Source: a candidate division WOR-1 bacterium RIFOXYB2_FULL_46_45
Lineage (GTDB): Bacteria; Margulisbacteria; WOR-1; XYC2-FULL-46-14
Length of the DNA stretch: 64,000 bases
Direction of reading: 5' to 3'
Assembly: GCA_001771585.1 (NCBI GenBank)
Contig: MEUE01000001.1
Location: 191,789-255,788, forward strand
Both the position numbers and the translations under genes were made by a program. This document shows, one piece after another, positions 31,720-64,000 of the stretch; the stretch's first letter is position 1; the number at the start of each line of letters is the position of its first letter. Below the pieces are notes generated by a model that worked only from the letters and a program-made list of their open reading frames with translations, had not been told where the DNA came from and did no database searches.

Positions 31720-32826
31720 TTATCCTATAATTTTATTCACCGCGGCCACAACTTCGTCAATTTGTCGTTCGGTTAAAGTCATACCCGAAGGCAAATACAA
31801 TCCCTGTCTTGCTATCCGTTCGGTAACAGGATAACTCTCTCCCTTAAATAAATCCAAATCATGTAAAGCCGGCTGTTCGTGCAATCCCAGAAAAAATGGG
31901 CGTGTTCCTATTCCCTCTTTACCCAGTTCTCGCATCATTGTTTCGGCATCTATTCCTAGCGCATTATCCAACTCGATACAATACATCCAATATACCATTT
32001 TTGCCCACGGTTTTTCAATTTGATATTTGATCCCTTTAATCTTACTTAGCCCCTCACGATAATATTCACCCAGTCGTCGCTTAATCCGTACAAACTCTTC
32101 AATCCGCTCCATCTGCGCAACTCCGATAGCGGCCTGCAGATTGGTCATTCGAAAATTATATCCCAACTCGGTGTGGTAAAACCTTTTTTCCGGACGAAAA
32201 CAGAGATTACGATAAGATGCCGCCCGTTCAGCCATTTTGGGATCGGAGGTAAGCACCATCCCTCCTTCACCGGTTGTAATTATTTTGTTGGCATAAAACG
32301 ACCAGGCACTGACATGGCCGATACTTCCGCATTTCTGCCCCTTATACTCTGCCCCGTGAACTTCAGCCGCATCTTCAACAATAACAAGGTTATGTTTCTT
32401 GGCAATCGCCAAGACGGGATCCATGTTTACTGGATGTCCATAGATGTGAACCGGCATAATGGCTTTGGTCTTTGAAGTCAAACGAGATTCAATCTGATTC
32501 ACATCCATATTCCAAGTTTCAGGCTCACAATCAACCAAAACCGGCACTGCACCAAGCCGAATAGCCGCCAAAGCACAGGAGATAATTGTAAAAGACGGCA
32601 TTATCACTTCATCGCCCTTTCCTACCCCAGCAGCAAACAAGGCTGTTTCTAAAGCCGCCGTCCCATTACATACCGCAATGCCATATTTAACTCCAATATA
32701 ATCAGCAAATTTCCGCTCAAATTCGATGACAAACGGCCCATCTGAAGAGATCCAGCCGGTTTCAATGCATTGCGCTAATAATTCCTTTTCGTGGCCATTT
32801 AATAATGGTTGATTAACAGGAATCAT
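31720..32826 (-). CDS. DegT/DnrJ/EryC1/StrS aminotransferase, perosamine-synthase-like
   Basis: GWISSDGPFV, NGTAAL, EDAAEVHG, SFYANKIITTGEGG, GYNFRMTNLQAA; start at MIPVNQP. Confidence 0.9.
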   Translation of the reverse strand: MIPVNQPLLNGHEKELLAQCIETGWISSDGPFVIEFERKFADYIGVKYGIAVCNGTAALETALFAAGVGKGDEVIMPSFTIISCALAAIRLGAVPVLVDCEPETWNMDVNQIESRLTSKTKAIMPVHIYGHPVNMDPVLAIAKKHNLVIVEDAAEVHGAEYKGQKCGSIGHVSAWSFYANKIITTGEGGMVLTSDPKMAERAASYRNLCFRPEKRFYHTELGYNFRMTNLQAAIGVAQMERIEEFVRIKRRLGEYYREGLSKIKGIKYQIEKPWAKMVYWMYCIELDNALGIDAETMMRELGKEGIGTRPFFLGLHEQPALHDLDLFKGESYPVTERIARQGLYLPSGMTLTERQIDEVVAAVNKIIG

Positions 32827-33238
32827 CGGTGCTCCTTTTGCCCTCAAATCTGCCTTTATCTGCTCCTTCAATATACGGACCATTTTTTACTTCGATGATT
32901 TCGGCTTCTTGAAGAACCTCAATTCCATGACCTGCACCGGCAAGCAGAATAGTATCACCCGCAGACAACTTACGGCTCTCTAAAAATTCTTGCTCAAAAG
33001 AGTAAAAATCAATGCGAATTTCTCCGCTTTTTATAAATAAAACTTCTTGTGTGCCTATAGTATTTCTATGGACAGGGTTATGAATATGAGGTGAAATTCG
33101 ATAACCATTAGGACGTGTCATATAACCAAGTTGCAAGGGATATTTATTGGGTGACAAGAACTGAATTCCTTCCTGTTTATGGTCCTTATAAACAATAATA
33201 GCGATAACTGTATCGTTATGAATTATGTTTTCAAGCAT
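32813..33238 (-). CDS. Cupin-fold protein
   Basis: PHIHN...QEVLFIKSG...GAGHG...EVKNGPY metal-binding cupin pattern. Confidence 0.7.
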   Translation of the reverse strand: MLENIIHNDTVIAIIVYKDHKQEGIQFLSPNKYPLQLGYMTRPNGYRISPHIHNPVHRNTIGTQEVLFIKSGEIRIDFYSFEQEFLESRKLSAGDTILLAGAGHGIEVLQEAEIIEVKNGPYIEGADKGRFEGKRSTDDSC

Positions 33239-38063: not shown

Positions 38064-39512
38064 TTACACCTTGTTAAATCCAGGCGCAGGGATACGCCTA
38101 ACCATTTTATATAATTTAAACAAATACGAATTAGACCTTATTATTAACCCAACCGATTTTCTTAATAAAGATATCCGTGGCCGATGTCGCTTATAAACAT
38201 TGTACTCAAACCAGACACAACCGCGTTGTATCTGCCTCCTGCTAAAGCCGGGTAAGTTTAAAATGGCTTTTTCTCTTTCGTTCTCGGTATCAATTTGGCC
38301 TTTTATTAGTCCTTTTTTTTCGCAAAGGGCAAACAAATCGGTTCCCGGATAAGGATAGAAAATAGAAACAGACGTCCAATCCGGCTGGCAAAGCCGATTC
38401 ATTCTAACTGTTTCTTTGAAATCATTAATGGTTTCTCCCGGCAATCCCATCATATTTAGAAAACATACCTGTAGGCCATATTTTCTTGCCCGCTTTACAG
38501 TTCTGATAATATCATCGTTAGAATAATTGCGTTTTAAGATTTCACGGCGCACTCTTTCGCTACCGGATTCCAGCCCAATATTAACAAACCTGAAATTTGC
38601 CCTTTTAAATGCGCTAAAAATCGGTTCCACATCCAAATTGGGAGTAACCCTCAAATTAGTCCCAAAAGACCATGGACAACTAAGTCCTTTGTTAAAGTTT
38701 TCCAGTTTAGAACATAAATCGATCACCCAGTCCGCATTTGTCCCAATTGTTTCTACTTCCAAATAAATTTCCCTCTTGCTTTTCTTTTTTACATGTTTTT
38801 TTGTAAGCTCTTCTATTTCACTTAAAATATTGTCAGGAGATCGATATCTGGTATAAGTTCCACTCGCCAGCTTTCTCAATGCATGATTGCAACAATAAGT
38901 ACAATTAAATGGGCAGCCGCGCCCCAATAAAACCGCATATACGGAGTTTGGTTCTTCCTCTATCCATTCCTGCCACATTTCTCTGTCGGGAAAGGGCAAT
39001 TCATCAAGATTCTGCAAAAAAGGACGCGGCTTATTCTTTTCAATCTTATCCTCATGTTTGATCCATAGATTTGGGATTGACAAAGGAATTCTCCCTTTTT
39101 CTAATTGTGAAACTAATTCCAAAACAGGATACTCTCCCTCTCCAACACATAACGCATCAAAATCATCTAAAACCCCTTCCGGATTAAGTGAAACATGCGC
39201 TCCCCCAACCAATAAATATATGTGGGGGTATTTTTTCTTAACATATCTTGCCAAGCTGGCAACAAAAGAATATTCACTGCTTACAGCGGTAAAACATATC
39301 AAATGTGGATGATTATTGTTTATATATTCATCAAGGATTTCCTCGTTTTTATTTCCTGAAATTCGACTTAAAACCACCAGCCTTGTAGAATGTCCGTGTT
39401 TTTTCAATAAGGAAGATATGTATGATATGCCAAATTGTATTGACTCCAAAGCCCTCAATGGCTTGCGCGGTGTTACTATATTATATAATGAATAGATAAA
39501 AAGAATTTTCAT
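38064..39512 (-). CDS. B12-binding radical SAM protein
   Basis: QFGISYISSLL, VGGAHVS, GRGCPFNCTYC, IGLESGSERVR. Confidence 0.92.
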   Translation of the reverse strand: MKILFIYSLYNIVTPRKPLRALESIQFGISYISSLLKKHGHSTRLVVLSRISGNKNEEILDEYINNNHPHLICFTAVSSEYSFVASLARYVKKKYPHIYLLVGGAHVSLNPEGVLDDFDALCVGEGEYPVLELVSQLEKGRIPLSIPNLWIKHEDKIEKNKPRPFLQNLDELPFPDREMWQEWIEEEPNSVYAVLLGRGCPFNCTYCCNHALRKLASGTYTRYRSPDNILSEIEELTKKHVKKKSKREIYLEVETIGTNADWVIDLCSKLENFNKGLSCPWSFGTNLRVTPNLDVEPIFSAFKRANFRFVNIGLESGSERVRREILKRNYSNDDIIRTVKRARKYGLQVCFLNMMGLPGETINDFKETVRMNRLCQPDWTSVSIFYPYPGTDLFALCEKKGLIKGQIDTENEREKAILNLPGFSRRQIQRGCVWFEYNVYKRHRPRISLLRKSVGLIIRSNSYLFKLYKMVRRIPAPGFNKV

Positions 39513-39516
39513 AAAA

Positions 39517-40551
39517 CTATAAAGTGATAACTCTCTTAAATCGATTACGCAGGCAATGGGTGAGGCCGCTTGTTAAAAACTGTAGCTCTTTGTGCCCAAT
39601 CCCTTCTGCCATATCAAATCTTGGCAAACACTCCAAATGATTGCGATGCTCCAAAAATACATTGGCAGATCTTGTTGTGGTCGCCGTTATAAATCCGGAT
39701 TCTTTGGCGATTTCGAATTCCCTTTTCTCTACTTCTCCCCTCCCTCCATTTGGATAAGCGAAATGCTTAATCTCGTAGTTGAGTTGCGATTCAAGCATTG
39801 TCTTTGAACCAAGTATCTCTTTTTTTACATCAGCCCCTGACAAGTTTTTAAGAACCAAATGATTTATTGTGTGAGCCCCAATCGTTACTAACGGATCTTT
39901 ATTTAGCTTCTTGATCTGATCCCAAGAAAGCACTAGCTCGTCTGTTTTTTTATACGCATCGATTTTAAATAAATTAAAAATCTTTCCGGCTTTATCCGCA
40001 AGCTCACTTTCGTTGCAGCCCCTTAGCAAAAACCCAATGTTTAAATAGGCCCTTTCTTTTCCTTCTATTGTAGAACAATCAAAGTCATATTTTTTATTGT
40101 CTAGCTCAAAAGAAATTTTTTTGTTATCAAACAACAAATCACTTAGCGAATGCCACCACATGATTGCTTGTCTGTCTATGAAACCGCTTGTTATATATAT
40201 AGTGAAAGGTATATTGTATTTTTTAAAGATCGGATAAGCAAAAGTAAAGTTGTCAACGTATCCATCATCAAAAGTAAAAACAACATATTTCTTATCAACC
40301 TTTTTGCTGTTCAAAACCATGACTAATTGATCCAATGATACAACTTCATATTTTTGATCAAGGAAATATTTAATGACCATTTCCAGATAAGCGGGAGTTA
40401 CTTCAATCCCCTTACACCAAATCGACTTCTCAATCCCATTATCCGGGCACACCCTGTGGAATATCAAAATATGTCCTATACCAGAATAAAATGGTTTGGC
40501 CAAAGTATAAAATCTGCTCTTATCCAATAACTTCAACAATAATTTTCTCAA
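39517..40551 (-). CDS. Polysaccharide deacetylase (CE4/NodB-like)
   Basis: ILIFHRV, FTFDDGYVDN, IGAHTINH, HFAYPNG; TTG start overlapping the upstream stop. Confidence 0.87.
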   Translation of the reverse strand: MRKLLLKLLDKSRFYTLAKPFYSGIGHILIFHRVCPDNGIEKSIWCKGIEVTPAYLEMVIKYFLDQKYEVVSLDQLVMVLNSKKVDKKYVVFTFDDGYVDNFTFAYPIFKKYNIPFTIYITSGFIDRQAIMWWHSLSDLLFDNKKISFELDNKKYDFDCSTIEGKERAYLNIGFLLRGCNESELADKAGKIFNLFKIDAYKKTDELVLSWDQIKKLNKDPLVTIGAHTINHLVLKNLSGADVKKEILGSKTMLESQLNYEIKHFAYPNGGRGEVEKREFEIAKESGFITATTTRSANVFLEHRNHLECLPRFDMAEGIGHKELQFLTSGLTHCLRNRFKRVITL

Positions 40552-41309
40552 GATAAACTTGCACCGCCATCTACAACAAAACACTGGCCCGTAATCCACC
40601 GAGCATTATTTGAAAGCAAAAAACAAGTAATATTGGCAATATCTTCAGGTTTCCCTAACCCCAAAATATGTTTATTTAATATTTCATTTAAGCGTTCTGG
40701 CGGGATATTATCACCCACCTCCCCCTTCATCTCCGTATCAACAAGTCCGGGTAATATGGAATTAACCCTTATTCCATTCCTAGCCACTTCAACCGCCATA
40801 GCTTTTACCGCCGAATCTATCGCCCCTTTTGAGGCACTATAATTAATTACCCCGGACCGCCCCCTTATTGAACTTATTGAGGAAATAAAAACTATCCCCC
40901 CACCCTCATTCACCACCACCTTTTTATTGCAAAAACCCTTACACAACGCAATATCTGAAAAATAATTAATATCAAACAATTGTTTTGCTCTCTCAACATC
41001 AAAGGCCCGAAGGGATACCATCTGCATAATTCCTGCTGACAATATCAGTCCCCTCATCTTTCCATATTTTTGAGCTAATCCTAATACCCAATTTGGCAAA
41101 TTTTCAATATCTTCAGTTAAATCCTTGACCTCAAAAAACATTTTTTGGGGAGTGTTTGATAAATCTTTTATTTTCTCCAGTTTTTCTTTGTTTCTGGCAA
41201 CAGCTATAACTGTACCCCCCAATTCATTTATCTTCAGCGCAATAGCTTTCCCCAAACCGGAACTACCACCAGTTACAAGAAATATCTCATTCTCGCTAAA
41301 TTTAATCAT
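40548..41309 (-). CDS. FabG-like 3-oxoacyl-ACP reductase (classical SDR)
   Basis: VTGGSSGLG, ISSIS, YSASKGA, RVNSILPG, WITGQCFVVDGG. Confidence 0.85.
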   Translation of the reverse strand: MIKFSENEIFLVTGGSSGLGKAIALKINELGGTVIAVARNKEKLEKIKDLSNTPQKMFFEVKDLTEDIENLPNWVLGLAQKYGKMRGLILSAGIMQMVSLRAFDVERAKQLFDINYFSDIALCKGFCNKKVVVNEGGGIVFISSISSIRGRSGVINYSASKGAIDSAVKAMAVEVARNGIRVNSILPGLVDTEMKGEVGDNIPPERLNEILNKHILGLGKPEDIANITCFLLSNNARWITGQCFVVDGGASLS

Positions 41310-41312
41310 TGT

Positions 41313-41540
41313 TTACTCCAATTTGCCATTTGCAAGCTTTATTAAATCACCAATATTATATAATTTACTAATATCATTATACTTATACTTAATAGAAAAA
41401 TACTTATCGAAGATCGCGATTATTGACAAAGCAGCCAAAGAGTCCCATTCTTCCAATTCTGCTAAAACCATGTCTTCTGTTAATTCGCCGTCTCGCTGAA
41501 GTGCTTCTTTAATTGTATTTATAAACTCATCTTTTTTCAT
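41313..41540 (-). CDS. Acyl carrier protein
   Basis: 75 aa, acidic, EWDSLAALSI phosphopantetheine motif. Confidence 0.88.
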   Translation of the reverse strand: MKKDEFINTIKEALQRDGELTEDMVLAELEEWDSLAALSIIAIFDKYFSIKYKYNDISKLYNIGDLIKLANGKLE

Positions 41541-42621
41541 TATTTTGCTCACCCCCCTTATAAAACTCAATTGTTGAATATATTTGATCTAAAGATAAAA
41601 CAGCCGTTCCCCAAGATAAACCAACCCCAAATCCGGCCAATATAACCATTTTGTTTTCAGCAATTTTACCGCAAACAGAATCACAAATTGTTACAGGAAT
41701 TGAGGCGCAACTTTGATTGCCATACTTTGTTATAATATCCGAAGGTATTTTCTCCATAGGAAAATCTATTTTCCTGGCGATATTTTCGATAATATATTTA
41801 TTCGCCTGATGAAAAATAACATGGTCAATATCTTCTGGTTTCTTATCGGAAAAGCTCAATATTTCGCTTATCGCGGAAGGGATCTCATTTATTGCAAAAG
41901 AAAATATGTCTGAACCATTTATATACAAATCTTCTTGGCTTCTAACATTATTCTCATCATCCCTAATTTCTTTTGCGGTGGTAGCACTCTTTGGCATTCT
42001 AAAACCACCAGCCGGCAGTATAATTGAATCATATCCTCTTCCATCCGAATGCAAGATAAAATGCGCCGGTTTATTCTCTTCGGACCTTTGGATTAAAGTA
42101 GCACTTCCAGCATCACCAAACAAAGGAGCAGCAGATCGATCTTTTGGGTTAACACATTTACTTATGGTGTCTCCTGCCAGCAATAACACATTTCTACAAC
42201 TGCCGGCCTCTATCATCAAATGGGATAACCAAAGCCCGTAAACATATCCGGAACATCCTAAATTCACATCAAAAGCCGCGCAATCTTTAGACAATTTTAA
42301 CTTGCCATGCAAATAACAAGAGGTCGAAGGAATAAAATAATCTGGGGTTTGTGAAACAAATATCAGAGCATCTATATCTTCAGGGTTAAAAGACAAAGAC
42401 TTAAACATTATATTGGCCGCATATTCACACAAATCCGAAGAAGTTGTTCTTTCGTCAACCACAAATCTGACATCAAGCCCTATCCGCCTTCTTATTCTTT
42501 CAATCTGTTTTATGTCGCCACCATAAAGATCTATTTCATCTACAATTGACTTTCTGATGGGAGGAATAATAGAAGCAATTCCCGAGATTTTTACATTGGA
42601 AAACTTAGATTTTGCCGACAT
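41527..42621 (-). CDS. FabH-like ketoacyl-ACP synthase III (long)
   Basis: Catalytic triad motifs NLGCSGYVYG, FHQAN, YGNQSCASIP; GFGVGLSWG. Confidence 0.9.
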   Translation of the reverse strand: MSAKSKFSNVKISGIASIIPPIRKSIVDEIDLYGGDIKQIERIRRRIGLDVRFVVDERTTSSDLCEYAANIMFKSLSFNPEDIDALIFVSQTPDYFIPSTSCYLHGKLKLSKDCAAFDVNLGCSGYVYGLWLSHLMIEAGSCRNVLLLAGDTISKCVNPKDRSAAPLFGDAGSATLIQRSEENKPAHFILHSDGRGYDSIILPAGGFRMPKSATTAKEIRDDENNVRSQEDLYINGSDIFSFAINEIPSAISEILSFSDKKPEDIDHVIFHQANKYIIENIARKIDFPMEKIPSDIITKYGNQSCASIPVTICDSVCGKIAENKMVILAGFGVGLSWGTAVLSLDQIYSTIEFYKGGEQNNEKR

Positions 42622-42626
42622 ATTTT

Positions 42627-43550
42627 TTATACCCTTCCTAATATATTCCCAGACCAAGATAGCCCAACACCAAAACCAGAAATCAATATCGTTTTATTGT
42701 TTTCTTTCTGAATCTCCTTTGATAATATAATCGGTATCGATGAAGAAATCGTATTGCCATATTCCTCCGCATCAAATACAACTTTTTCATTAGGAAGTCC
42801 CAGTATGCGTGCTATACTATCGACAATATATTTGCTCCCCTGATGAAACACGAACTTATCGACTTCGTGAATTTTAATATTATTTTTTTTCAACAGCAAT
42901 TCAATATCCCGAGGGACATATTCCAAGGCAAAATCAAAAACAGCATGGCCATCCATAAACAGCTCACCGTTTTCGCATTTTAGTTCTTGGCAACGCTTGC
43001 CAACAGTACCAAAGGTGCACTTGCCGGATTGATATATTGGTTTGTTTGAAATGATTGTAACTGTTGCGGCATCGCCAAAAAGCAATGAAGTAACCTTATC
43101 TTTCCTGTTTATTATTTTTGAATATGGATCCGCAGTAAACAACAGCCCTTTCGTAAAATTATTTTCCTTCATAAAAGACTCAATTATTGATAGGCCATAA
43201 ACATAACCAGAACATCCAAGTGAAATATCAAAACAAGCGCAATTCTCGGATAAATCCAGCTTCCCATGAACAATTGCGGAAGTGTGCGGTATATTCATAT
43301 CGGGATTTTGAGTTATTACGACAAGAACCTCTACGTCTCCGATATTAACATCGCCCTTTTTATTAATAACATTCTTGTATGCTTTAATGCATAGATCAGA
43401 GGTCTCATCGGCAGCATTTTTAATGAGTGTTTTTTTTATCCCCAGTTTTTTTTCAATAAAATGGTCATTGATCCCAAACATTTCTTTTTGATCATAATTT
43501 GAAATGCTGTTTTCAGGCAAATAAAATGATATGTCTTCTATTCCAATCAT
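42627..43550 (-). CDS. FabH-like ketoacyl-ACP synthase III (short)
   Basis: SLGCSGYVYG, FHQGS, YGNTISSSIP, GFGVGLSWS. Confidence 0.9.
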   Translation of the reverse strand: MIGIEDISFYLPENSISNYDQKEMFGINDHFIEKKLGIKKTLIKNAADETSDLCIKAYKNVINKKGDVNIGDVEVLVVITQNPDMNIPHTSAIVHGKLDLSENCACFDISLGCSGYVYGLSIIESFMKENNFTKGLLFTADPYSKIINRKDKVTSLLFGDAATVTIISNKPIYQSGKCTFGTVGKRCQELKCENGELFMDGHAVFDFALEYVPRDIELLLKKNNIKIHEVDKFVFHQGSKYIVDSIARILGLPNEKVVFDAEEYGNTISSSIPIILSKEIQKENNKTILISGFGVGLSWSGNILGRV

Positions 43551-43564
43551 AAGCTCTCTCCGTT

Positions 43565-44428
43565 TTAAAAAACAGGCAAAATCAACAACTCCGTATAAAG
43601 ATTATCTGTGATATCATTTCGACCTAAAGTATTAGACAGAAATATTCTTCGGACACTACAATTTATAGAATATTTGATATTATGACCCATTAAAAATCTT
43701 TCGTCCATCAATAAGCCCAATATCCCCAAGCGCAGGCAAACTAAAAACCTTATTTGGGGCATAAACTCAAAAAACACATCAAAATTGCTAATATAATGTA
43801 TTTCTGCCAATGGCATGTTTTTTCTTTTTGTTTTCTTAGCAATAAAATAACAATAGTTGTCTTTTGTTTTAATCACAAAATGTAAGCACCTAAATTTTAG
43901 GTGGTCATGGTAAAATTTTAAATCCTTATCATTCAAACACCTTCTTACAATATCTGGATTTAGCTCAATAGAACATTTATTAAATAATAAGCTTAATGTT
44001 GGTACTGGCAATAGAATTTTAGAGATCGTATCAAGTTCTTTATATCCAAAAGACTTGTATGCGGACAAAACCGCTTTATTCCCAGGATTCAGTCCTGTTA
44101 TTGTATAATTATTTGCTAAGCTGACAACCTCGGAAAGGATTGAAAGCCCCACCCCTTCTTTTCTATATTCCTTTTTCACAATCCAGGTTGACATATTGCA
44201 AATCTTCTCTGGTTTTCCCCTTATTAATCTTTCACTAAAAATCAAGCCCATAAATCCTACCGCTCTGTTTTGATCAAATGCTGCATATCCAAAATAATCT
44301 TCACTCCCACCATAATGAGTTACAAACAATTGTTGCCAATCGGATTTAGCCAAAGAACTATCCATTTCTTGCAATAATGGATAAATTGCCTCAAAATCTT
44401 CTGCCTTAGCCTTTCTTACTGTCAACAA
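43565..44428 (-). CDS. GNAT-family acyltransferase
   Basis: VRKAKAEDFEAI, AVGFMG, NMSTWIVKKEYRKEGVG motif A. Confidence 0.8.
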   Translation of the reverse strand: MLTVRKAKAEDFEAIYPLLQEMDSSLAKSDWQQLFVTHYGGSEDYFGYAAFDQNRAVGFMGLIFSERLIRGKPEKICNMSTWIVKKEYRKEGVGLSILSEVVSLANNYTITGLNPGNKAVLSAYKSFGYKELDTISKILLPVPTLSLLFNKCSIELNPDIVRRCLNDKDLKFYHDHLKFRCLHFVIKTKDNYCYFIAKKTKRKNMPLAEIHYISNFDVFFEFMPQIRFLVCLRLGILGLLMDERFLMGHNIKYSINCSVRRIFLSNTLGRNDITDNLYTELLILPVF

Positions 44429-44445: not shown

Positions 44446-45372
44446 TTATTTCTGAACACAGTTCCCTATAATTCCGCTTCTTTTTTCAATTCTTCTAGCG
44501 TAAATCATTTTAAAAAAATGAACAGGAGATAACAAAAAAGATTTAGCAAGACTAACTAAAAATTGAATGTATTTTTTTTGCGAATGGTGTTTCGCTGCAG
44601 TAATAAAATGCACTCCACTTAAGGATTTATTGCGAAGAATGATCCTATCAATAGGATTCCGAACATTAAATTTTTTATAATATTTGTTCAGAACATTGAT
44701 CCAATTTTTACAAACCAATCCAAAATCATTGCTCAAATTAGATTCATGCATCCTCCATTTACCAAGTGTTTCATTAATGAAATAAAAATTGTATCCATGA
44801 TAGGCAATCCTTAACCATGCCTCATAGTCTTCCGCATGGACAAAATCTTTACTTTCATCAAATCCTCCTATTTTAGCAAACACCCTTTTTGCTACTACAG
44901 TTGCACTTCCGTTTAAGCAATTGCCAACTGTTAGAAGCTGTCTAAACATATTTTCACTCAACGGTCCAACCCTGTCTACAATATTAAGATCTGACTTGCC
45001 CTTTTCAAATATCGACACATCATGAGAAAGAATATCAATTTCAGGTTTTTCCATAAAAACCCGCATAACCTTCTCCAGTTTATCCTCATGCCATATATCA
45101 TCTGAATCTAAAAAAGCCACATAGTCGCCCTCTGCCAGTTTGATTCCCGTATTTCTCGGTCCGGCAACAGATCCTGTATCACTTTGGTAGTGATATCTTA
45201 ATTTGTCCCAGGCAAGGTTCCTTACAACCTCTTCCGTATTATCAATTGAACCATTATTAACCACGATCACCTCATAATTCTGATAGGTTTGAGCCTTAAC
45301 TGAAGCTAAACACTCCGGCAAAAAGTGCGCGTGGTTATGGGTAGCAATTACTACGGATACTTTGGGTATCAT
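44446..45372 (-). CDS. GT2 glycosyltransferase
   Basis: VSVVIATHN, PRNTGI, AFLDSDDIW, AEDYEAWLR. Confidence 0.9.
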   Translation of the reverse strand: MIPKVSVVIATHNHAHFLPECLASVKAQTYQNYEVIVVNNGSIDNTEEVVRNLAWDKLRYHYQSDTGSVAGPRNTGIKLAEGDYVAFLDSDDIWHEDKLEKVMRVFMEKPEIDILSHDVSIFEKGKSDLNIVDRVGPLSENMFRQLLTVGNCLNGSATVVAKRVFAKIGGFDESKDFVHAEDYEAWLRIAYHGYNFYFINETLGKWRMHESNLSNDFGLVCKNWINVLNKYYKKFNVRNPIDRIILRNKSLSGVHFITAAKHHSQKKYIQFLVSLAKSFLLSPVHFFKMIYARRIEKRSGIIGNCVQK

Positions 45373-57036: not shown

Positions 57037-57791
57037 ATCTTTTTAGCCACTACAAACAATGACGAACCGAACGGTTTCCATTTACAAATAAAATTTTCAA
57101 AAGAAACAATTTTGTAGAGCAAATTATTCGTCCAGGCCGATGGCAAATCAATGTCTGATTTTATTTCCATGTTTTTTAATAAGCGCAATTTAATTTTTTG
57201 CAAACTTCTTATAATAAATATTGCGGGAGAAAGAAAAAGCGGCCAGTAGATACAGGTTTGAACCTGAAAAGAACTGCTGTCAAAAAGATGTTTTATGTCC
57301 CTTTTTGTAAAACGGTATTTGCCGCCAACCGCAATATCATGTATTCCACCAAACAAATTAAACGCGGGAAGATTCAAAACCAAGATACCCCCTTTCCTTA
57401 AAACCTCACAAAATCCCCACACAATCTTCCTGTGCTCTGCTGGATCTGCATAAAAATAAAGTGTGTCATTAGAAACCACTACATCATAGTCATGTTTTGA
57501 AACTATGACGGAGGTCTGTTTTATATCTCCAAGGGTAACATTTAATCCCCTGGCTGTGCAAAACGATACCGCAACTTCTGCCAGATCAAAACCCTCTACA
57601 TTTTTATATCCTTTTTTTAGAAGATGTTTCAGTAATCCGCCCGTACCGCAGCCAGCATCCAATACACTAATATTTTTTTCTTTAAAATGATTTTCAATTG
57701 CCGTTATAGTCAATCGCCGTAATATCCTATACCACCAATGGCAAATCTCAACCTCCGCCATTCTTTTATATTCCGATGAATTAATAAACAT
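57033..57791 (-). CDS. Class I SAM-dependent methyltransferase
   Basis: EYKRMAEVE..HWWY, VLDAGCGTGG, LNLPAF..FGGIHD. Confidence 0.87.
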   Translation of the reverse strand: MFINSSEYKRMAEVEICHWWYRILRRLTITAIENHFKEKNISVLDAGCGTGGLLKHLLKKGYKNVEGFDLAEVAVSFCTARGLNVTLGDIKQTSVIVSKHDYDVVVSNDTLYFYADPAEHRKIVWGFCEVLRKGGILVLNLPAFNLFGGIHDIAVGGKYRFTKRDIKHLFDSSSFQVQTCIYWPLFLSPAIFIIRSLQKIKLRLLKNMEIKSDIDLPSAWTNNLLYKIVSFENFICKWKPFGSSLFVVAKKI

Positions 57792-58927
57792 TATAGTTTG
57801 GCAAAAGCCTTTATCTCCTCCACAACACAAACCATATCCCGATCTGATAATTCGGGGTATATTGGTAAGGATAGTATTTTATTCGCATAATCCTCTGCAA
57901 CAGGAAAAGACCCCTTAGTATAACCCAGTCCCTGATAACTTTCTTGCAGATGAACAGGAATTGGATAATGAATAAGCGTTTCCACCCCTTTCTCAGTAAG
58001 AAAGGTTTGCAACTTATCCCTTTGGACATATCTTACAACAAATAGGTGATATACGTGTTTCGCATAAATTGCCTCGGTGGGAGTAATAATTCCATCCATA
58101 TCTTTTATTAGAAAATCATAGAGTCCAGCTTTATTTCTTCTAAGCTCATTCCAAGCATCAAGATATTTCAATTTCACTCTCAAAATTGCTGCTTGTATCT
58201 CATCAAGCCTACTATTATATCCCTTAATTTTATGATGATATCTCTTAATTTGACCATAATTTCTTAAAAGTTTGACCTTCTCAGCAAGCTCGAGATTAGA
58301 AGTAACTACCATGCCCCCATCTCCGAGCGCACCTAGATTTTTACTAGGATAAAAACTAAAACAACCCATTTCTCCTATACTCCCAGCTTTCTTCCCTTTA
58401 TATAAAGCTCCATGTGCCTGACAAGCATCCTCAATCACTATCAGGCCATGCCTTTTGGCAATATCCAAAATAGGATCCATGTCAGTACATTGACCGTATA
58501 AATGAACAGGAATTATCGCCTTGGTCTTTGATGTGATCGCTGATTCAAGCTTTTGCGGATCCATAGTGTAGGTATTGGGATCAATATCAACAAATCTTGG
58601 AACAGCTCCTGCAAATGAAATCGCTGATACCGTCGGAACCGCTGTGTTAGGAACAGTTATCACCTCATCTCCCGGATTGATCCCAGCCGCTACCAAAGAA
58701 AGATGAAGGGCTTCGGTTCCCGAACCCACACCAATAGCATACAAACTCTCACAATACTCTGCAAATTCCTTTTCAAAAACCGCAAGTTCTTCTCCTAAAA
58801 TATACCAACCCCGCTTCAATACCCGCTGAACAGCATCATCAACTTCTTGCTGGATCTGAAGATATTGAGCTCTTAAATCACCAAAAGGGATATTTTTAGT
58901 TCTATTGCCAGTAATGTTCTTTTCCAT
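57791..58927 (-). CDS. DegT/DnrJ-family aminotransferase (FdtB/WbpE-like)
   Basis: [52 protein letters not shown]. Confidence 0.92.
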
Positions 58928-59906
58928 ATTTTTTATAATACTCGATTGTATTGGCCAATCCATCTTTAACCAAAACCTTCGGCTCCCATCCTAATATTTT
59001 CTTAGCTTTTCTGTGATCTGAATAATAATGCCCAATATCAATTTTTTTTAACTTTTCAGGAAAAGGAATAAGCGAATATTTACCTGCTCCATTAACTTCT
59101 ATCATTATTTTGACAATATCCTCCAGAGAGACGACCTGGGAATCCCCTAAATTCATTATTTGACCTTCAGCCTTTTTTTCTGCACCACTCATCAGCAGAG
59201 CTGCAACAGCATCGTCAACATAATTCAGATCTCTCAACTGCTGCCCATCCCCAAATATCTTAATTTCCTTGTTGTCCAGCAACAGGTGAATAAACCAACC
59301 AAGAAAACCCTGTCGGTTATGCTTTATTAACAAACGCGGTCCATAAGTATTCGTTAAACGAAGAACAACTGTTTTGATTCCATAAACCTCATGATAAAGA
59401 ATATGATAATATTCGCCTGCTATCTTGTTTATTCCATTCACATCCGTCGGCTTTAAAGGATGAACCTCATCTACGGGAAGATATTGCGGTTTACCATAGA
59501 TCTGCCTAGTACTGGCATAAATAATTTTTATGTCTGGATTATTTCGGCGACAGGATTCGAGAATTGATAGCTGGCTCTTAGCATTGATCTCCAAATCAGT
59601 ATAAGGATCCTCCATGCTGTCTATATGACTAACCTGGCCTGCCAGATTAAACATTATGTCTTGACCTCTAACAAGATAATTCATGCCATGTCCATCTCTA
59701 ACGTCTGCAATATTTATTTTTACCAAATCCTTAACCGGATCAATATTAAAAAGATTTCCACCATAGTCGGGTATCAGTGAATCAATTAAGGTAACTTTGG
59801 CTCCCAACTCTACTAATCGAATAGCTAAATTGCTGCCGATAAAACCCAAACCACCCGTAATCACTACCGGTCGATCTTTATAGTAAGAGAATAAATCGTT
59901 ATCCAT
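58902..59906 (-). CDS. NAD-dependent epimerase/dehydratase
   Basis: [42 protein letters not shown]. Confidence 0.9.
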
Positions 59907-63396: not shown

Positions 63397-64000
63397 TTAC
63401 GGGTCAATCATTCTTTTTGCATGTTCATAAATAAATTTTTTATGCTCAATAGCAAAATTACCTGTTACTTTTTGATTTGCCGGGACGGAACGAACAACAA
63501 CTGAACCAATACTAACGACTGCCCCCTCCCCAACTGTAATTTGATCTTTTATAACTGCTCCCGGATTAATCCTTACATTATCATGAATAACCGCACTCCC
63601 ACAGATTTTACAAGCACAAATTAGACAACCATTACCCACATGAACACTATGAGCGATATATGCGGTATTAGCAATTTTTGTACCATTACCAATCACCGTA
63701 TTCTTATATGAAAATCCTTTATCAATCGTACAATTTGCCCCGATCTCGGTCTGATCACCAATAATTAACATTCCATCATGAAAAATATGAAGCAGTCCTC
63801 TGGAAGTTCTTTTTTCTTCAGCATCATCACAACCCAACACAGTTCCCGCTTTAACAACACAATTATTTCCAACGATCACATCTGATAATATGGCTACATG
63901 CGGTCCAATAACTACATTCTCTCCTATTTGAACATTATAATCAGAGATAAAAGCACTAGGATGTATAGTTGCAGACGGATGAATTAAAGAAGGTTTTTTC
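63397..64000 (-). CDS. LpxD-like hexapeptide-repeat acyltransferase, 5' end outside the window
   Basis: Frame open to the right edge (KKPSLIHPSATIHPSAFISDYNVQIGENVVIGPHV...); IIGDQTEIGANCTIDKG, IAHSVHVG hexapeptide repeats. Confidence 0.82.
   Translation of the reverse strand, partial: KKPSLIHPSATIHPSAFISDYNVQIGENVVIGPHVAILSDVIVGNNCVVKAGTVLGCDDAEEKRTSRGLLHIFHDGMLIIGDQTEIGANCTIDKGFSYKNTVIGNGTKIANTAYIAHSVHVGNGCLICACKICGSAVIHDNVRINPGAVIKDQITVGEGAVVSIGSVVVRSVPANQKVTGNFAIEHKKFIYEHAKRMIDP

Follow-up and report, generated by a model that had tools for sequence, protein, structure and literature searches.

The genome of the uncultured groundwater bacterium RIFOXYB2_FULL_46_45 (candidate division WOR-1) carries, at positions 39517-44428 of the 64,000-nucleotide stretch analyzed here (contig MEUE01000001.1, positions 191,789 to 255,788; hereafter "the window"), six minus-strand genes that encode, in this order, a GNAT acyltransferase, two 3-ketoacyl-acyl carrier protein synthases of type III (KAS III), an acyl carrier protein (ACP), a FabG-type ketoreductase (KR), and a carbohydrate esterase family 4 (CE4) deacetylase. 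We favor, with a probability of roughly 0.55, the interpretation that this cassette is an acyl-editing set for a surface-glycan sugar, in which deacetylation would be followed by reacylation with a short 3-hydroxyacyl group made on the ACP. A preliminary description of the window had proposed the same genes, order, and coordinates, a B12 radical S-adenosylmethionine (SAM) gene next to the cassette, and no dehydratase or enoyl reductase beside it. Pfam and NCBIfam profile searches of the translations of open reading frames (ORFs) agree on all these points. The six ORFs are present on the minus strand, the radical SAM gene is located at 38064-39512, and the ORFs scanned between 26.7 and 64 kb, three of which have no family, include no match to a dehydratase or enoyl reductase family. 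The assignments are as follows.

43565-44428, minus strand: tandem-GNAT acyltransferase, here called GNATw (287 aa; PF00583 at 27.5 bits against a cut-off of 20.7, over residues 17-129 only)
42627-43550, minus strand: KAS III, here called FabH-B (307 aa; matches to PF08545 and PF08541)
41527-42621, minus strand: KAS III, here called FabH-A, the presumed core ketosynthase of the FabH-A/ACP/KR triad (364 aa counted from an ATG; the ORF reaches a TTG at 42657)
41313-41540, minus strand: probable private ACP (75 aa; attachment Ser within EWDSL)
40548-41309, minus strand: probable FabG-type 3-ketoacyl-ACP reductase, the KR (253 aa; adh_short_C2, E 3e-44)
39517-40551, minus strand: CE4 metal-dependent deacetylase (344 aa from a TTG at 40551; PF01522 at 76.3 bits, E 2.6e-21)
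44446-45372, minus strand: neighboring family 2 glycosyltransferase, GT2 (PF00535, E 2e-31)
38064-39512, minus strand: neighboring B12-binding radical SAM enzyme (matches to PF04055 and PF02310)

The spacing is operon-like, and the six genes are translationally coupled. All junctions fall within +14 to -14 nucleotides (nt): GNATw and FabH-B are separated by 14 nt, FabH-B and FabH-A by 5 nt, and ACP and KR by 3 nt, while FabH-A overlaps ACP by 14 nt and KR overlaps CE4 by 4 nt. The probable CE4 start codon, TTG 40551, shares the letters TTGA with the stop codon of KR. The radical SAM gene begins 4 nt downstream of the CE4 gene.

The interpretation draws first on the company that GNATw keeps elsewhere. 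A word-indexed search of 5.8 billion proteins yielded a small GNATw family of 34 clusters, whose members are 285-309 aa long and conserved over their full length, and a metagenome scan added 80 GNATw loci (loci and genomes are designated below by our own L and G numbers). We counted as informative the 27 loci in which the GNATw homologue has 1.1 kb or more of flanking sequence on each side. Of these, 20 to 22 encode a deacetylase no more than two genes away: a CE4 enzyme in 10, the unrelated PIG-L in another 10, and two more detected by tblastn. In 29 of the 80 loci, ACP genes are found at most four genes from the GNATw homologue, and the accompanying loaders vary. The orders observed include PIG-L/GNATw/ACP/FkbH-like (L155), AMP-ligase/decarboxylase/GNATw/ACP/PIG-L (L114), FabH/ACP/KR/GNATw (L164), ACP/KR/FabH/GNATw'/GNATw/CE4 (L102), and ACP-like/SDR/AMP-ligase/GNATw/CE4, where SDR denotes a short-chain dehydrogenase/reductase. 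Because the family pairs with two nonhomologous deacetylases and with several nonhomologous ACP loaders, a deacetylate-then-reacylate unit with an ACP-borne donor is the simplest explanation. The link between the GNAT and the deacetylase that bracket the cassette, suggested in the preliminary description, is thus borne out at the level of the family, often with ACP-loading genes alongside.

A 560-aa protein recurs after PIG-L/GNATw/ACP (L155:8216-9898, L113:4714-6399, and similar). One homologue has weak FkbH_N and HAD-phosphatase matches, which suggests a glyceryl-ACP loader and hence a putative N-glyceroyl product.

In the loci L092, L093, and L094, the GNATw homologue directly adjoins CE4 with no acyl genes between them. 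The same is true of L181, from a relative of the same class (genome G089), which shares synteny with the window as L093 does. The four-gene donor block of the source genome consequently sits inside a conserved GNATw-CE4 pair. Synteny between L093 and the window extends over an HMGL-like gene, a 611-aa protein, an NTP-transferase, an epimerase, a cupin, an RmlD-like gene, and the GT2 gene; L092 has the sugar-nucleotide genes of the window in a different order. Homologues of the GT2, with 28-60% identity, adjoin the GNATw-CE4 pair in L093, L095, L096, L181, L142, and L102.

GNATw belongs to the GNAT superfamily by its above-cut-off match to PF00583, by an RKEGVG motif, and by the two GNAT folds in its AlphaFold model (pLDDT 89.3). 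Residues W31, G47, G58, G61, H176, S214, Y278, and E280 are invariant in its family. The nearest solved folds found by Foldseek are the tandem GNATs Eis, N-myristoyltransferase, and the glucosamine N-acetyltransferase of C. acetobutylicum (PDB 3sxn, 4cav, and 5kf1; TMq 0.52-0.59), each with two fused GNAT domains as predicted for GNATw. Of these, 5kf1 acylates glucosamine amines and N-myristoyltransferase takes a non-acetyl acyl donor. However, identities to GNATw are 8-15%, TMq values are 0.5-0.6, and all three enzymes use acyl-coenzyme A (acyl-CoA). We know of no pairing of any of them with a deacetylase or an ACP. We propose that GNATw is a putative N-acyltransferase from acyl-ACP (or acyl-CoA) to a sugar amine.

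The deacetylase is a CE4 member, above the PF01522 cut-off of 23.1 bits, and its TFDDG, HTINH, and AYPNG motifs align with those of PgaB (4u10) and PplD (6dq3). It is the sole PF01522 (Polysacc_deac_1) match in the whole 1.7-Mb genome (match at window positions 39739-40305). Because it has no hydrophobic segment that could serve as a signal peptide or membrane anchor (maximum 19-residue hydropathy 0.84), its predicted site of action is the cytoplasm. Close orthologues directly follow GNATw homologues elsewhere, and within the phylum this close subfamily is confined to the two genomes with a close GNATw, namely the source genome (G000) and G089.

Both ketosynthases of the donor block are members of KAS III and keep the Cys (GCSGY), His (FHQ), and Asn (YGN) residues, as confirmed by alignment to solved FabH structures (5bqs for FabH-B; 4efi, the best solved relative, for FabH-A). 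The intact triads noted in the preliminary description are therefore real. The two enzymes are 32% identical to each other. FabH-A scores 323 bits with NF009519, under the cut-off of that model, and belongs to a large family with 51-62% identical relatives in Vibrio parahaemolyticus, V. vulnificus, Pseudoalteromonas, Thiomargarita, and many metagenomes. In every context examined, these relatives are followed downstream by an ACP of 72-77 aa and then an SDR. The private ACP reaches only E 0.049 with PF00550 (14.3 bits, under the gathering score of 20.8) and is 57, 48, 40, and 35% identical to the ACPs of homologous cassettes, the highest value being that for L183. Its Asp33-Ser34 attachment site is invariant in an alignment with the cassette ACPs and the housekeeping AcpP. 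The SDR motifs TGxxxGxG and YxxxK can be read directly in the KR, which is FabG-like by its place after the ACP, a position that its orthologues share in L011, L008, L183-L185, and L196.

Every FabH-A/ACP/KR block examined has an acyltransferase within a few genes, and its family differs between loci. Vibrio and another Saganbacteria genome have an Acetyltransf_3 GNAT, L185 and L183 a PglD-like or LpxD-like left-handed β-helix (LbH) protein, and L184 an Acetyltransf_9 protein. BLAST gave no match between GNATw and the Acetyltransf_3 GNATs that flank the homologous donor block elsewhere, so GNATw is not orthologous to them. The complete FabH-B/FabH-A/ACP/KR block recurs in identical order in the other Saganbacteria genome (FabH-B 63% identical), where its neighbors are a PIG-L deacetylase and a GNAT other than GNATw.

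A second KAS III accompanies FabH-A in only some loci and is of differing kinds. In the source genome and the other Saganbacteria genome this enzyme is FabH-B; L184 and G093 have a paralogue of FabH-A instead. In Flavobacteriaceae loci with the order ketosynthase-ACP-ketosynthase-KR, the first enzyme is WfpC-like and the second ketosynthase is 39% identical to FabH-A. The FabH-B family usually occurs in a cassette that lacks a reductase and consists of a ~200-aa protein with a probable hotdog fold, FabH-B, an ACP of 76-78 aa, and, in many loci, an LbH acyltransferase. Of the 80 best FabH-B genome loci, just one, from the other Saganbacteria genome, has FabH-A, the KR, or a window-type ACP in its vicinity, and we therefore rejected the idea that FabH-B is a dedicated partner of FabH-A.

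Three further observations concern relatives of these ketosynthases. The tandem FabH-A paralogues (L184:1659-11318 and G093:C115:7828-9995, also L195 and L203) are 54% identical; an FkbH-like protein and a glyoxalase-fold protein precede them, and an ACP, a KR, and an Acetyltransf_9 protein follow, with a CE4 gene three genes further on. A capsule or O-antigen locus of Vibrio parahaemolyticus GCA_030263115.1 (L008:7518-16637) contains RmlB, RmlA, a GNAT, a FabH-A relative (57%), an ACP, and a KR, continuing with a 95-aa ORF, an SDR, an AMP-ligase, DegT, and GT56 (WecF-like), and thus offers the FabH-A/ACP/KR triad in a cultivable organism. The ~200-aa family that precedes FabH-B relatives (L031:9381-9995 and equivalent ORFs in about 30 of L012-L091) has no Pfam match; Atlas structure and feature searches suggest a hotdog fold of the thioesterase, AfsA, or AvrD-like type (TM 0.69, feature score < 0.9).

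From the chemistry of these families, the following sequence of events can be proposed. The single AcpS of the source genome would activate the private ACP, and the single housekeeping FabD would load malonate. The two KAS III enzymes and the KR would then build a short 3-hydroxyacyl-ACP, with one condensation giving 3-hydroxybutanoyl-ACP, or two, each then reduced, giving 3,5-dihydroxyhexanoyl-ACP. With no dehydratase or enoyl reductase matched among the ORFs scanned, the acyl product should keep its hydroxyl group or groups. It is probably 3-hydroxybutanoyl or, if both ketosynthases act, 3,5-dihydroxyhexanoyl, the C4 product being equally possible. To judge from its motifs and context, the cytoplasmic CE4 enzyme would strip an acetyl group, most likely N-acetyl, from an N-acetylhexosamine-type residue on a nucleotide- or lipid-linked intermediate, and GNATw, given its gene neighborhoods, may move the acyl group from the ACP onto the freed amine. 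GNATw and the deacetylase would form the conserved acceptor-side module, and the KAS III/KAS III/ACP/KR block the exchangeable donor-side module.

The preliminary description had likewise envisioned that N-acetyl is exchanged for a custom acyl group. It is partly supported, by the link to deacetylases, the separation from primary synthesis (see below), and an enzyme set like that of published 3-hydroxyacyl modules, but two of its details are not. One was that a FabH might act as the transferase, which is disfavored because neither protein has lost the Cys-His-Asn triad that marks condensing enzymes and because GNATw is available as a dedicated acyltransferase candidate. The other was a methyl-branched chain produced with the B12 radical SAM enzyme. 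Homologous FabH/ACP/KR blocks elsewhere have no such neighbor, and among 83 related loci a radical SAM gene directly follows a GNATw-CE4 pair only in L125, with occurrences within 1.5-6 kb in L092, L127, and L181. The best NCBIfam match of the window's radical SAM protein is HpnJ, at 131 bits and far under its cut-off.

The proposed logic has precedents. In rhizobial Nod factor synthesis (NodB, NodA, NodF, and NodE), a sugar amine exposed by a CE4 enzyme is reacylated by a transferase that depends on acyl-ACP, the special chain being supplied by a private ACP and ketosynthase. The likeness is one of logic only: NodA is not a GNAT, NodE is of the KAS I/II type, and a long, unsaturated chain is attached to a chito-oligosaccharide; none of the six cassette proteins matches the NodA or KAS I/II families. 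Similarly, LpxC and LpxD, and the teicoplanin-type PIG-L deacetylase with its acyltransferase, remove the acetyl group of a GlcNAc unit before N-acylating it, and the acyl donor of LpxD is a 3-hydroxyacyl-ACP. The teicoplanin-type variant parallels the PIG-L-linked GNATw loci. However, these systems employ unrelated families (the LpxC fold, the LbH protein LpxD) and housekeeping acyl-ACP or acyl-CoA donors.

Donor-side parallels are closer. Pseudomonas syringae pv. tabaci 6605 has a viosamine island (vioA, vioS, acp, vioR, vioB, vioM, vioT), a glycan locus that likewise combines a private KAS III, ACP, and 3-ketoacyl-ACP reductase with an adjacent acyltransferase. There, N-(3-hydroxybutanoyl)viosamine is formed through vioS/acp/vioR/vioB, and mass spectrometry was used to check a vioR deletion mutant (PMC3927599). 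That island differs in having one ketosynthase, the LbH-type VioB rather than a tandem GNAT, an aminotransferase-derived amine, and no deacetylase. In Flavobacterium psychrophilum, wfpC-wfpG (two KAS III/ACP/KR/acyltransferase) were assigned by Cisar et al. to the 3,5-dihydroxyhexanoyl N-acyl group of the O-polysaccharide, a prediction not tested with mutants (PMC6519341). Like the cassette, wfpC-wfpG encode two different KAS III enzymes (33% mutual identity compared to 32% here), a 76-aa ACP, and a ketoreductase. The architecture concerned is the ketosynthase-ACP-ketosynthase-KR order of the Flavobacteriaceae loci mentioned above. In the cassette, two rounds of condensation and ketoreduction without dehydration would yield exactly the wfp-type acyl group. 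In contrast, the wfp genes differ in order, include a PglD-like LbH acyltransferase and no deacetylase, and have a partner ketosynthase outside the FabH-B family. The cassette falls outside a vio/wfp-type definition, in that its adjacent transferase is a GNAT and its adjacent candidate for generating an amine is a deacetylase.

Several points weigh against the acyl-editing interpretation. FabH-B relatives normally operate without a ketoreductase, so a role for FabH-B as a second elongating ketosynthase is a guess. The CE4 family also contains O-acetyl esterases. The conserved neighboring genes make a 6-deoxyhexose and not an amino sugar. The GNATw subclade of the window retains a CoA-type R-x-x-G-x-G motif (RKEGVG, residues 89-94), whereas in all remaining members, among them every one linked to an ACP or to PIG-L, the donor motif is shortened by two residues and reads YRxxS(L/F). 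This loss could reflect a change of donor from CoA to ACP. In addition, the closest relatives of the GNATw-CE4 pair (L092, L093, L095-L098, L181) have no ACP genes nearby. Given the retained motif and these relatives, an acyl-CoA donor, even acetyl-CoA, is possible for the window's subclade, and the functional tie of GNATw to the inserted donor block is one of position only.

One alternative, which we consider unlikely, is that the donor block does feed GNATw but that the amine comes from a DegT aminotransferase of the island, as in vio and wfp. The CE4 enzyme would then be employed otherwise, for example in freeing an amine for the HpnJ-like radical SAM enzyme (HpnK to HpnJ logic) or in leaving a free amine in the finished glycan. 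Two DegT aminotransferases are indeed encoded in the window (31720-32883 and 57791-58963), and in the 3-hydroxyacyl modules already known an aminotransferase supplies the amine (PMC3927599, PMC6519341). The 4-nt junction between CE4 and the radical SAM gene, and the recurrence of the order GNATw-CE4-radical SAM in L125, also fit this proposal. However, the DegT genes are 7-14 kb distant and lie within other subclusters. Moreover, the frequent placement of GNATw homologues beside one of two unrelated deacetylases occurs mostly without a radical SAM gene, and the close CE4 subfamily is found within the phylum only where GNATw occurs.

Less probable still is that GNATw and CE4 are an acyl-CoA-dependent pair, engaged in an acetylate/deacetylate cycle or in O-acyl editing and independent of the inserted block, with a KAS III or a distant acyltransferase passing on the 3-hydroxyacyl group. 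The CoA-type motif and the ACP-free relatives described above speak for this scheme, as does the presence of O-acetyl esterases within CE4; KAS III-like acyltransferases also exist. Against it, the triad characteristic of decarboxylating condensing enzymes is intact in both KAS III proteins, and the more distant GNATw members are ACP-linked. Likewise, a GNAT or LbH transferase lies within a few genes of every homologous FabH-A/ACP/KR block examined, and here only GNATw is adjacent.

That the cassette is the organism's primary set for initiating fatty-acid synthesis, the reading that the preliminary description had named as its own refutation and for which only the family names FabH, ACP, and FabG speak, is scarcely credible and was ruled out, since the source genome (1.70 Mb, 4 contigs, 99.5% complete) has a canonical FabH at C4:94545-95471 (426 bits against the TIGR00747 cut-off of 292.1), AcpP at C4:85271-85474, and its single FabD at C4:86265-87095, all on contig 4 (C4); the genome encodes a single AcpS. 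The cassette proteins fall below the equivalog cut-offs for housekeeping FabH (TIGR00747 scores of 207 bits for FabH-A and 187.6 bits for FabH-B) and for FabG, whose models give the KR 130-145 bits (TIGR01830, 141.5 bits against 297.75). Their distribution is also sparse, with GNATw found in 3 and FabH-A-like proteins (E <= 1e-60) in 9 of the 146 genomes of the phylum.

The cassette lies within a glycan island of at least 45 kb that holds glycosyltransferases, a Wzy, sugar-nucleotide genes, several B12 radical SAM genes, and a CMP-sugar-acid set. Two other routes were considered and rejected for these genes. An Arn/Gtr-like lipid-carrier route via the adjacent GT2 finds no clear C-terminal membrane helices in that protein (maximum hydropathy 1.39), and the models for a PEP-CTERM FemAB-like/deacetylase pair gave no NCBIfam match among the cassette proteins.

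A second, independent acyl cassette of this island, also on the minus strand, extends from window position 63397 to about 8 kb past the window end (L007:186-9038, equivalent to G000:C1:255185-264037). Its genes encode Wzx, an LbH acyltransferase, a methyltransferase, an 86-aa ACP-like ORF, a third KAS III (325 aa), an SDR, a 4,6-dehydratase, a DegT aminotransferase, a 356-aa protein, and an LpxD-like LbH protein. With its KAS III, ACP-like ORF, and SDR, an LbH transferase, and a sugar aminotransferase, it fits the vio/wfp type.

Among the antigenic features often met in O-antigens, capsules, and glycosylated flagellins are non-acetyl N-acyl groups such as 3-hydroxybutanoyl, dihydroxyhexanoyl, and glyceroyl. 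To our knowledge, the genes for most of these decorations have at best been guessed. ACP/KAS III/KR cassettes for N-acyl sugars are already known; in the literature searched, we found no description of a tandem GNAT combined with a deacetylase and an ACP, or of its modular donors. More tentatively than the acyl-editing role itself, and at somewhat less than even odds, we speculate that the GNATw family comprises general ACP-dependent sugar N-acyltransferases with an obligate CE4 or PIG-L partner, forming a portable N-acyl editing unit served by interchangeable FabH/KR, AMP-ligase/SDR, and FkbH-like donor modules, and that the unit described here attaches a 3,5-dihydroxyhexanoyl group assembled by the two ketosynthases. 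If so, the GNATw family would be a sequence signature for predicting N-acyl decorations from genomes, strengthened by its constant deacetylase partner and swappable ACP donor modules, and the parts of the cassette would be usable in glyco-engineering. Cells would also have a second route to the acceptor amine, in which an existing N-acetyl sugar is edited rather than a keto sugar transaminated.

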